Part shown: piece by piece, positions 30,381-31,753 of the stretch
Numbering within the stretch: the stretch's first letter is position 1
Layout: each line of letters begins with the position of its first letter
IMG/VR virus record: IMGVR_UViG_2778261692_000003
Location: 1 to 40,582 of that record
Source of the DNA: a virus
Lineage: Duplodnaviria > Heunggongvirae > Uroviricota > Caudoviricetes
Direction: 5' to 3' (one strand)
Length of the DNA: 40,582 nucleotides
The notes under the pieces: model-generated
Databases searched by the model: none
The model's input: the letters and a program-made list of their open reading frames with translations, nothing else
What the model was told of the DNA's origin: nothing
Translations under genes and position numbers: made by a program

Positions 30381-30456
30381 ATTATAACCAAAGATAACTC
30401 AAGTTATAAAAAATAGCAATAACCTTTGTTATTTTACTTTGGATAACCGTAGTTAT
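30381..30456. promoter_or_regulatory. OR/PR/PRM region: three 14-bp operators ATAAC-N4-GTTAT (30394-30407, 30419-30432, 30443-30456) and PR -10 TATAAT (minus strand, 30381-30386)
   Basis: Palindromic 14-mers spaced about 24-25 bp centre to centre between divergent cro and cI. Confidence 0.6.
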
Positions 30457-30468
30457 AGATTTGTGGGT

Positions 30469-31176
30469 ATGAAAACATTCGCAGAAAGACTAAATGCAGC
30501 CATGAGCTCAGCTGGGGTATCACAATCACAGCTTGCTGACATGGTTGGAATATCTCAGCCAGCCATACAGAAGATGTCGTCCGGTAAAACAAACGGATCT
30601 CGCAAGATGGTTGAATTAGCCAATGCTTTAAAAGTGCGCCCTGAATGGCTTAGTTCTGGTATTGGTGAAATGAGGGATGGTGCACATGAAGAACCATCCA
30701 ATGTCCGTGAGTCATCTTTAAAAGCTGTGGTATGGGAAGACATTAAAAGAAACGATGACGAGTTTGTTGCGTTGCCTCTTCTTAACGTTTCGCTTTCAGC
30801 TGGAAGCGGTAGCTGCGAGCTAGAGGAATCATCGGAGTTCTCTTTGGTTTTCAGAAAGCACTATCTGAAAAAGATGGGAGTATCTGAAAGATCAGCCAAG
30901 CTAGTTAGGGTTGTAGGGCAAAGCATGGAACCAACGCTTCACGATGGCGATGTTGTTGGTGTTAACACGCAAGATACCACAATCAGAGATGGTAAAACCT
31001 ACGCTATTTGCCAGTCTGATTTGTTACGAGTAAAAACATTAATCGCCACCCCTACATCGGTGATAATCAGATCAATAAATCGCGAAGAGTACCCGGATGA
31101 AGTAATGGATAGAGATGAATTTCATGAAACCGTAAGGATTATTGGCAGAGTATTCTGGTCGTCTCATAGTTGGTAA
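30469..31176 (+). CDS. cI: CI-type prophage repressor (HTH plus LexA-like S24 autoprotease domain)
   Basis: N-terminal HTH (QSQLADMVGISQPAIQKM); C-terminal S24 motifs (VVGQSMEPTLHDGD, catalytic Lys in LRVKTL); ATG 30469 preferred over TTG 30439. Confidence 0.85.
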   Translation: MKTFAERLNAAMSSAGVSQSQLADMVGISQPAIQKMSSGKTNGSRKMVELANALKVRPEWLSSGIGEMRDGAHEEPSNVRESSLKAVVWEDIKRNDDEFVALPLLNVSLSAGSGSCELEESSEFSLVFRKHYLKKMGVSERSAKLVRVVGQSMEPTLHDGDVVGVNTQDTTIRDGKTYAICQSDLLRVKTLIATPTSVIIRSINREEYPDEVMDRDEFHETVRIIGRVFWSSHSW

Positions 31177-31216
31177 CCGATAATCAGAAGAAGACTTACG
31201 GAAGTGCGGAGGGATA

Positions 31217-31513
31217 ATGGAATTTCTGACAGTTTTTGTTGTTGTTTTGGTCATCATTCTTTTTGTTTTGCTAAGCATTAGCAAAAAGCTATCTCAAATG
31301 ATTGAACATAGCTCTAATCGAGCAAAAGAAGAAGAGCATCTAATTGATATAAAAGAGATTCTCTCTGATATAAAAATCACATTAGATGAAATAAAATACA
31401 CAACAGATCTAATTGAACAGTATAAAATACCAACCCCAAACGAGAGAAAAGCAATAGATCAATATCGTATTGACTTAGAAATCGACGAAATGCTAAGCAA
31501 TAGAAAGGACTAA
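31217..31513 (+). CDS. Membrane-anchored coiled-coil protein in rex-equivalent position (unknown function)
   Basis: 98 aa; N-terminal TM (FLTVFVVVLVIILFVLLSI) then charged helical region; GGAGGG RBS; AT-rich; directly downstream of cI, upstream of OL. Confidence 0.6.
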   Translation: MEFLTVFVVVLVIILFVLLSISKKLSQMIEHSSNRAKEEEHLIDIKEILSDIKITLDEIKYTTDLIEQYKIPTPNERKAIDQYRIDLEIDEMLSNRKD

Positions 31514-31518
31514 AAACA

Positions 31519-31542
31519 CCCGGCCTCAGTGCCGGGTTTTTC
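31519..31542 (+). terminator. Rho-independent terminator ending the cI-operon
   Basis: CCCGGC-CTCAGT-GCCGGG followed by TTTTTC. Confidence 0.75.
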
Positions 31543-31667
31543 TTACCCTGCCGTTCACCACCCAATCAACCATCCTCAGCATAGACAAGCATCAAGCCAA
31601 AGGTAACACCTTCACCCCGCACGCAAGCCCTCAAACACCAATCAATCAGCAACATTTACAAAAATAA

Positions 31668-31753
31668 AATACCTTTGTTATCCATCACTTATAACTTATT
31701 TACCACAAAATATAAATTAGGTTATTGACCACACCTATAACCTAAGTTATCTT
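31668..31753 (+). promoter_or_regulatory. OL/PL: operators of ATAAC-N4-GTTAT type (31668-31681, 31712-31725, 31737-31750), -35 TTGACC (31725-31730) and -10 TATCTT (31748-31753)
   Basis: Same operator half-sites as OR; promoter hexamers with 17-bp spacing overlapping operators. Confidence 0.55.

Follow-up and report, generated by a model that had tools for sequence, protein, structure and literature searches.

The stretch of DNA analysed here (the window; 40,582 nucleotides) comprises positions 1 to 40,582 of IMG/VR virus record IMGVR_UViG_2778261692_000003, assigned to the Caudoviricetes. Its lambdoid early control region, drawn reversed relative to the lambda convention, occupies 29.7-32.3 kb and contains the immunity region that is the subject of this study. 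Gene calls from the open reading frame listing and Pfam place cro at 30133-30357 on the minus strand and cI at 30469-31176 on the plus strand. The two genes diverge from a 111-bp gap that holds three perfect 14-bp palindromes. The cI product is a repressor of 235 amino acids with an N-terminal HTH_3 domain and a self-cleaving C-terminal Peptidase_S24 domain. Cro, with 74 amino acids, belongs to the all-alpha YdaS/P22-Cro family (Pfam YdaS_toxin, E=1.1e-17, P22_Cro and HTH_3; PHROG 35).

Operator sites and predicted promoters around cI and cro

The palindromes of the right operator region (OR) follow the motif ATAACNNNNGTTAT (ATAAC-N4-GTTAT). OR1 (ATAACTCAAGTTAT, 30394-30407) and OR2 (ATAACCTTTGTTAT, 30419-30432) lie 25 bp apart, centre to centre, and OR3 (ATAACCGTAGTTAT, 30443-30456) follows 24 bp from OR2; all three are perfect, as an earlier note on this DNA had claimed, and five relatives retain the positions and half-sites of the palindromes. 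With up to one mismatch allowed, the motif matches six times in the window against 0.92 matches expected, and none of 100 shuffles reached six. The sites were also scored with a position weight matrix (PWM) to which only relatives contributed, the window and its near-twin being excluded. Five sites, OR1-3 and two in the left operator region (OL), rank first with 18.1-21.2 bits (19.5 for OR1, 20.0 for OR2 and 19.5 for OR3), and no other 14-mer of the window exceeds 10.1 bits. The sixth match, a one-mismatch site at 36548 with 4.9 bits, was dismissed as chance, about 0.9 such matches being expected.

The OL region contains two full sites. OL1 (ATAACCTAAGTTAT, 31737-31750) is perfect and, at 21.2 bits, the top site of the window; OL2 (ATAAATTAGGTTAT, 31712-31725; 18.1 bits) carries one mismatch, its left half reading ATAAA. 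Three operators had been claimed at OL as well, and here the claim fails: neither the pattern search nor the PWM recovered a third full 14-bp palindrome in the OL region, where everything else is an isolated half-site. At the OL3 position, 21 bp from OL2, only the left half of ATAACTTATTTACC (31691-31704) is intact. At a degenerate distal site, AATACCTTTGTTAT (31668-31681; 7.2 bits), only the right half is intact; this site is a 77% direct copy of OR2 and its flank, and its GTTAT half is conserved in five relatives. In HK639 the site homologous to 31691-31704 is nearly complete (ATAACTTATGTGAT, one mismatch). The outward-facing, conserved half-sites upstream of OL2 (GTTAT-N9-ATAAC) might represent an auxiliary operator arrangement undescribed for lambda, 434 and P22. 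The ATAAA half of OL2 is kept in every relative examined (SH2026Stx1, PA28, HK639 and loci L005, L011 and L012); judged from the alignments, the deviation looks selected rather than accidental, perhaps tuning affinity. In phage HK620, an unannotated sequence at 3101-3117 of the locus we compared (L002), AAATATCCTTTGTATTC, is homologous in position to the distal half-site at 31668-31681 and fits the AATAC-N5-GTATT consensus better than the annotated OL3 of that phage (TTATCATTATTTCATCA).

A promoter scan places pL (TTGACC-17-TATCTT, plus strand) at 31725-31753, overlapped by OL1 and OL2. The promoter is conserved in relatives, and HK639 is annotated with pL at the same relative position. A five-way alignment of the window with SH2026Stx1, PA28, HK639 and a Salmonella contig (S.Kent) points to TTGCTA-17-TATCTT at 30391-30419 on the minus strand as pR, with conserved TATCTT and TTG elements that mirror pL. 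In this placement the -35 abuts OR2, and OR1 takes up the spacer and reaches into the -10; the OR1/OR2 side thus repeats the pL layout on the opposite strand. The pR -35 reads TTGCT- in the window, SH2026Stx1 and PA28, and TGGACA in HK639 and S.Kent.

The putative pRM (TTTACT-17-TAGATT, plus strand) lies at 30433-30461 with both hexamers conserved in relatives. Its -10 overlaps OR3 by one base, and lambda pRM has the same geometry. Because the pRM -10 ends 7 nt before the cI ATG in the window, and 6-7 nt before it in every relative, the cI mRNA would be leaderless. A leaderless cI has been noted elsewhere (PMC8630535). At the end of the cI operon, a bidirectional intrinsic-terminator-like hairpin (31518-31537, both strands) occupies the place where HK620 annotates tIMM.

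CI, Cro and half-site specificity

The N-terminal domain of CI is nearest to the 434 repressor in a phmmer search of the PDB (1per, 2r63 and 1sq8, E=7.7e-8 to 2.9e-7; also 2or1), and among the PDB matches at E<0.01 there is no lambda CI chain. A self-cleavage apparatus of LexA type is present in the C-terminal domain, with Ala111-Gly112, Ser152 and Lys189. For Cro the nearest solved structure is the all-alpha Cro 3bd1; a weak match (E=0.015) links it to a 66-residue chain named 'Regulatory protein cro' (2a63). These assignments confirm the earlier claim that cI and cro are not lambda-like while cII is: CI is nearest to 434, Cro falls in YdaS_toxin/P22_Cro, and the cII product matches lambda CII at 96 of 97 positions.

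The helix-turn-helix (HTH) segment of Cro, SQKRLADKCGVTQPAVHK, parallels that of CI, and the recognition helices are nearly identical (TQPAVHK in Cro, SQPAIQK in CI). The DNA encoding the HTH of cro (30266-30306) and of cI (30532-30572) forms a 41-nt inverted repeat that is 73% complementary. Because this repeat covers both HTH-coding parts, it suggests that the DNA-binding domains of CI and Cro are diverged copies of one another.

In the five-way alignment the promoter hexamers, the half-sites and the 25/24/25-bp spacing are kept, and the central 4 bp and the DNA between operators drift. ATAAC-N4-GTTAT sites with 25/24-bp OR and 25-bp OL spacing occur in SH2026Stx1, PA28, HK639, S.Kent and prophages of Kluyvera, Enterobacter and Entomohabitans. 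Among the 68 half-sites collected from eight loci, A1, A3 and A4 never vary; T2 occurs in 67 and C5 in 61, and the flanks are unconserved. All loci with CI SQPAIQK and Cro (S/T)QPAVHK have ATAAC; in Entomohabitans no cro of the YdaS/P22-Cro family was found and the CI helix alone was scored. Distant homologues change the half-site together with both recognition helices. An Izhakiella prophage combines CI SQAAIQK and Cro TQQAVYK with ACAAC sites at OR and OL, and an Erwinia typographi prophage combines CI AQSSVNK and Cro SQSTICD with ATCGC-N4-GCGAT at OR and just downstream of cI. This covariation supports the earlier proposal that the ATAAC half-sites define repressor specificity. The CI of Yersinia phage YP3 (41% identical) was left unused, no recognisable related operators being found upstream.

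In co-crystals of the 434 repressor, Gln28 reads A1 and Gln29 reads base pair 2. The invariant Gln30 of our CI aligns with 434 Gln28, and Pro31, which covaries with base 2, aligns with Gln29. It is conceivable, if rather unlikely, that the third residue of the recognition helix sets half-site base 2 in CI and Cro alike, Pro giving ATAAC and Ala or Gln giving ACAAC, and that the 434-class switches at these loci make up an orthogonal series of natural origin. If true, this would be a simple specificity rule, usable for the design of orthogonal repressors.

Relatives, mosaic joints and neighbouring genes

The same cro-OR-cI-OL layout is found in PA28 (NC_041935), HK639, SH2026Stx1 and Stx1a_10051, with an identical CI helix, SQPAIQK, throughout, and with ATAAC-N4-GTTAT operators at the spacing seen in the window. 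Stx1a_10051, a Stx1a-converting phage, is 98.8% identical to the window over 30020-32300. Identity in the CI N-terminal domain is 65/65 for SH2026Stx1, 60/65 for PA28 and 55/65 for HK639. PA28 is 79% identical in DNA and 85% in CI and differs in N and nut, and HK639 has put RNA instead of N. Among 5426 complete E. coli genomes, 99 carry the cassette 30100-31860 at a coverage of at least 80%. In HK639 CI (L004, 2201-2890) the recognition helix is the same, and the S24 C-terminal domain is essentially unrelated (27/115). Since the N-terminal domain is shared and the C-terminal one is not, the HK639 mosaic joint falls inside the repressor gene, between the domains. The SH2026Stx1 repressor is annotated from position 2991 of its locus (L001; 190 amino acids), whereas an ATG at 2853 opens a frame to 3560 encoding 235 amino acids, 232 of them identical to the window CI and the HTH included. 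The deposited annotation therefore appears to be N-terminally truncated.

The operator motif has been listed before. Yin et al. (2015; PMC4587872, Table S5) gave as putative PA28 operators ATAACCTAAGTTAT, ATAACCACGGTTAT, ACAACAATTGTTAT, ATAACTCATGTTAT and ATAACTATATTTAT, all of the same motif. In that table (Additional file 6, PST3), 'OL1-3' map to the PA28 cro-cI gap, OR in our nomenclature, and 'OR2-3' lie next to N, our OL; the labels seem to be swapped relative to the paper's own definition, or shuffled in the conversion from PDF to text. The entry 'OR1' (ATAAATGACTGAT) is no palindrome of the ATAAC family. A literature search by exact sequence with six operator 14-mers returned no paper, and the motif appeared only in the supplementary table of PMC4587872. 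The literature on the HK639 repressor and operators, together with papers citing Fattah et al. 2000, yielded no description of an ATAAC specificity.

Comparison of half-sites with known immunity groups, the check that the earlier note had proposed, places the window with PA28, HK639 and SH2026Stx1 and apart from 434, lambda, HK620, 933W and CP-933P. Like 434, it has three OR sites, 14-bp operators whose outer bases are conserved and whose centre varies, and a similar recognition helix in CI and Cro. The two share a class of fold and geometry, but the 434 half-site ACAA(G/T) (ACAA-N6-TTGT) and helix TQQSIEQ are absent from the window, which has ATAAC and SQPAIQK and a Cro of the YdaS/P22-Cro family. 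Because half-site and recognition helix differ, its immunity specificity should differ from that of 434, and the region is not of the imm434 type. With lambda the window shares three OR sites about 24 bp apart, back-to-back pR and pRM, a TAGATT -10 placed 6-7 nt ahead of the cI ATG, OL over pL, the N/nut system, and an effectively identical cII and pRE box. In contrast, lambda has 17-bp operators of another sequence, rexAB in the place of a small gene, orf98, and three full OL sites, and neither its CI nor its Cro appears as a significant match of the window proteins. HK620 (NC_002730), in which nutL, nutR, OL, OR, pL and pR are annotated, shares the P22-like virion genes and the overall layout of the operator regions, and its nutR, nutL and pL leader are 100% identical to those of the window. 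It differs in its operators (AATAC-N5-GTATT, 17 bp as annotated), in a CI related in the HTH only, in a lambda/HK97-like Cro and in a P22 c1-like cII. The 933W operator class was dismissed for its 15-bp sites of odd symmetry. The PaaR2/YdaS switch of CP-933P was likewise set aside, having 18-bp repeats (consensus GTTTAGTAA) and a different repressor; it shares with the window only the YdaS-type Cro fold and a leaderless repressor gene.

Over 30021-30133, a stretch that runs from the start of cII across nutR as far as the cro stop, the window and HK620 are 100% identical. Identity to HK620 is about 95% over 31660-32597 and essentially complete from 31756 through nutL and N. The core between, cro-OR-cI (30111-31178), is 94% identical to the Stx1 phage SH2026Stx1, in which boxA is followed by a P22-type boxB. 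The left joint of the cassette falls at the nutR boxA, where HK620 identity stops at 30133 and SH2026Stx1 identity begins at 30111. The right joint lies in a conserved segment from the pL leader to boxA (31756-31810). HK620 flanks, a SH2026Stx1-like core and a lambda-type cII, with HK620 itself carrying another cI, cro and operators, uphold the earlier view that the immunity module was exchanged independently of cII. Such independent exchange of a cassette is textbook lambdoid mosaicism, and the sequence comparisons support it here.

Downstream of both pL and pR, a boxA is followed by a boxB hairpin. The 11-nt boxA GCTCTTTAACA occurs at 30114-30124 (nutR, minus strand) and 31800-31810 (nutL, plus strand). 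The 18-nt boxB core CCCGCCGAAATGCGGGAA lies at 30081-30098 (nutR, minus) and, as an exact match, at 31824-31841 (nutL, plus); both copies fold as a stem-loop (hairpin sequence CCCGCCGAAAUGCGGG) and together form a 19-nt inverted repeat of 100% identity. The claim that nutL and nutR are identical therefore stands for the boxA and boxB cores. It does not extend to the spacers between them, whose sequences differ and whose lengths are 2 nt apart, and both nut sites lie outside the interval 30381-31753 to which they had been assigned. The two nut sites are 100% identical to the features annotated in HK620, whose record labels them 'putative'. N (31948-32220, plus strand; 90 amino acids; Pfam N_peptide, E=1.6e-14) is of HK620 type, with 86 of 90 residues identical to HK620 N and the arginine-rich motif NARNRRRARRQAQRE.

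On the other side of cro, cII (29730-30023, minus strand; 97 amino acids; Pfam Phage_CII, E=1.7e-48) is of lambda type, as judged against lambda CII (PDB 1xwr). A pattern match identifies a candidate pRE CII box, TTGC-N6-TTGC (TTGCGTTTGTTTGC), at 30001-30014 on the plus strand, reading towards cI; like the lambda pRE box, it lies within the 5' part of cII. By itself the motif has no genome-wide significance, with 8 matches against 3.5 expected. Directly downstream of cII, on the opposite strand, there is a strong terminator-like hairpin with a T-run (29754-29781, plus), and the surrounding sequence resembles the oop antisense RNA region of lambda. An Rfam scan of 29000-33500, which includes this hairpin, gave no match at E<=0.1.

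Following cI, orf98 (31217-31513, plus strand) encodes a small protein of PHROG 18389 (unknown function), for which Pfam gave no family; it is probably co-transcribed with cI. Its product has a hydrophobic N-terminus and is otherwise charged and probably helical, and the gene sits in the slot of lambda rexAB. It may be an accessory gene expressed in the lysogen. In SH2026Stx1 the slot after cI holds DUF3024 and other genes instead. The remainder of the window carries P22-like virion genes resembling those of Kapi1, CUS-3, IME10 and Sf101.

The immunity switch and competing explanations

The region is very probably the CI/Cro bistable immunity switch of a P22-like lambdoid coliphage or prophage, built on a repressor/operator pair of the 434 class with the specificity ATAAC-N4-GTTAT. 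It has the hallmarks of a lambdoid switch: divergent cI and cro with three operators between them, a repressor with HTH and S24 domains and the Ala-Gly site and Ser/Lys dyad, and OL over pL upstream of N. That CI and Cro bind these operators and confer superinfection immunity is predicted, and the covariation of helix and half-site supports the prediction indirectly.

From this arrangement we infer the following mechanism. In the lysogen, CI dimers on OR1 and OR2 would block pR, and dimers on OL1 and OL2 would block pL in the same geometry. CI at OR2, which abuts the pRM -35, probably activates the leaderless cI-orf98 transcript, ending at the 31518-31537 hairpin. OR3, over the pRM -10, would serve negative autoregulation by CI or shut-off by Cro, which is expected to bind the same sites as CI through its near-identical helix. 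Induction would proceed by RecA-stimulated self-cleavage of CI at Ala111-Gly112 by the Ser152/Lys189 dyad. After derepression, N would bind the identical boxB hairpins of nutL and nutR and, with boxA and host Nus factors, allow read-through. Repression would be established by the lambda-type CII through the TTGC-N6-TTGC box (30001-30014).

Several points weigh against parts of this account. Lambda and 434 are the models on which cooperativity and pRM activation are assumed, and the 933W repressor was reported to bind non-cooperatively (PMC3317979). The OL region has no third full site, and looping between OL3 and OR3 in the style of lambda is not to be assumed. The position of pR is ambiguous: a consensus scan prefers TTTATA-18-TATAAT (10 of 12 matches), and the annotators of HK639 placed pR elsewhere than we do. 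The literature search turned up no report of binding, footprints, transcript starts or immunity for this repressor.

If the element preferred by the scan (30381-30410, minus strand) were the functional pR, OR1 would overlap the spacer together with the -35 instead of the -10. The TATAAT of this element is perfect and the HK639 authors likewise put the pR -35 inside OR1, but PA28, HK639 and S.Kent lack the TATAAT. All relatives have TATCTT (TATTTT in PA28) with a -35 17 bp upstream, an arrangement that reproduces the pL layout exactly. We regard this placement as possible but doubtful; in a variant of it, the two overlapping promoters might act in tandem. A comparable degree of doubt attaches to the idea that OL has three or four functional operators, the weak sites at 31691-31704 and 31668-31681 being filled cooperatively from OL2 and OL1 and serving, like lambda OL3, long-range OL-OR looping and pRM repression. 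The intact halves, ATAAC at 31691 and GTTAT at 31677, are kept with their 9-bp separation in all five relatives, and at the 31691 position, 21 bp away from OL2, the site is almost complete in HK639 and the Enterobacter prophage; lambda has a similar spacing between OL2 and OL3. The distal site is moreover a diverged copy of OR2, and HK620 has a good site of its own type at the homologous position. However, neither candidate exceeds 7.2 bits in the window, a level that random sites elsewhere in the genome also reach, and in its right half the 31691 site agrees with GTTAT at one of five positions.

We consider it improbable that induction depends mainly on an antirepressor of P22 immI or Gifsy type rather than on RecA-mediated self-cleavage of CI. 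The window is P22-like, and many P22-like phages carry ant, but CI has a full-length S24 domain and retains in it the canonical Ala-Gly site and the Ser/Lys dyad. Neither mechanism excludes the other. Far less probable still is that the palindromes are no CI/Cro operators at all, and are chance occurrences in AT-rich intergenic DNA or the sites of another protein. The region is indeed AT-rich, and the link between CI and the sites is drawn from the sequence. Against this reading, however, stand the 0/100 shuffles reaching the observed count, the 8 bits that separate these sites from the next best one in 40 kb and their restriction to the two promoters that flank cI and cro. In distant relatives, moreover, half-site and recognition helices of CI and Cro change together, at OR as well as OL, and on these comparative data the non-operator explanation is effectively refuted.

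The CI/Cro switch described here is genuine, well formed and already catalogued; it is of low novelty and of the ordinary 434 structural class. It matters little beyond annotation, for which it provides the operator consensus and promoter layout of one immunity group with comparative support, and experimental study of the repressor would fill in another immunity type without opening a new question. The region is a clear case of module exchange at boxA segments and fits both standard lambdoid mosaicism and the 434/lambda switch paradigm. The immunity group is common in E. coli prophages and includes Stx1- and Stx2-converting phages, in which repressor-operator strength influences toxin release.

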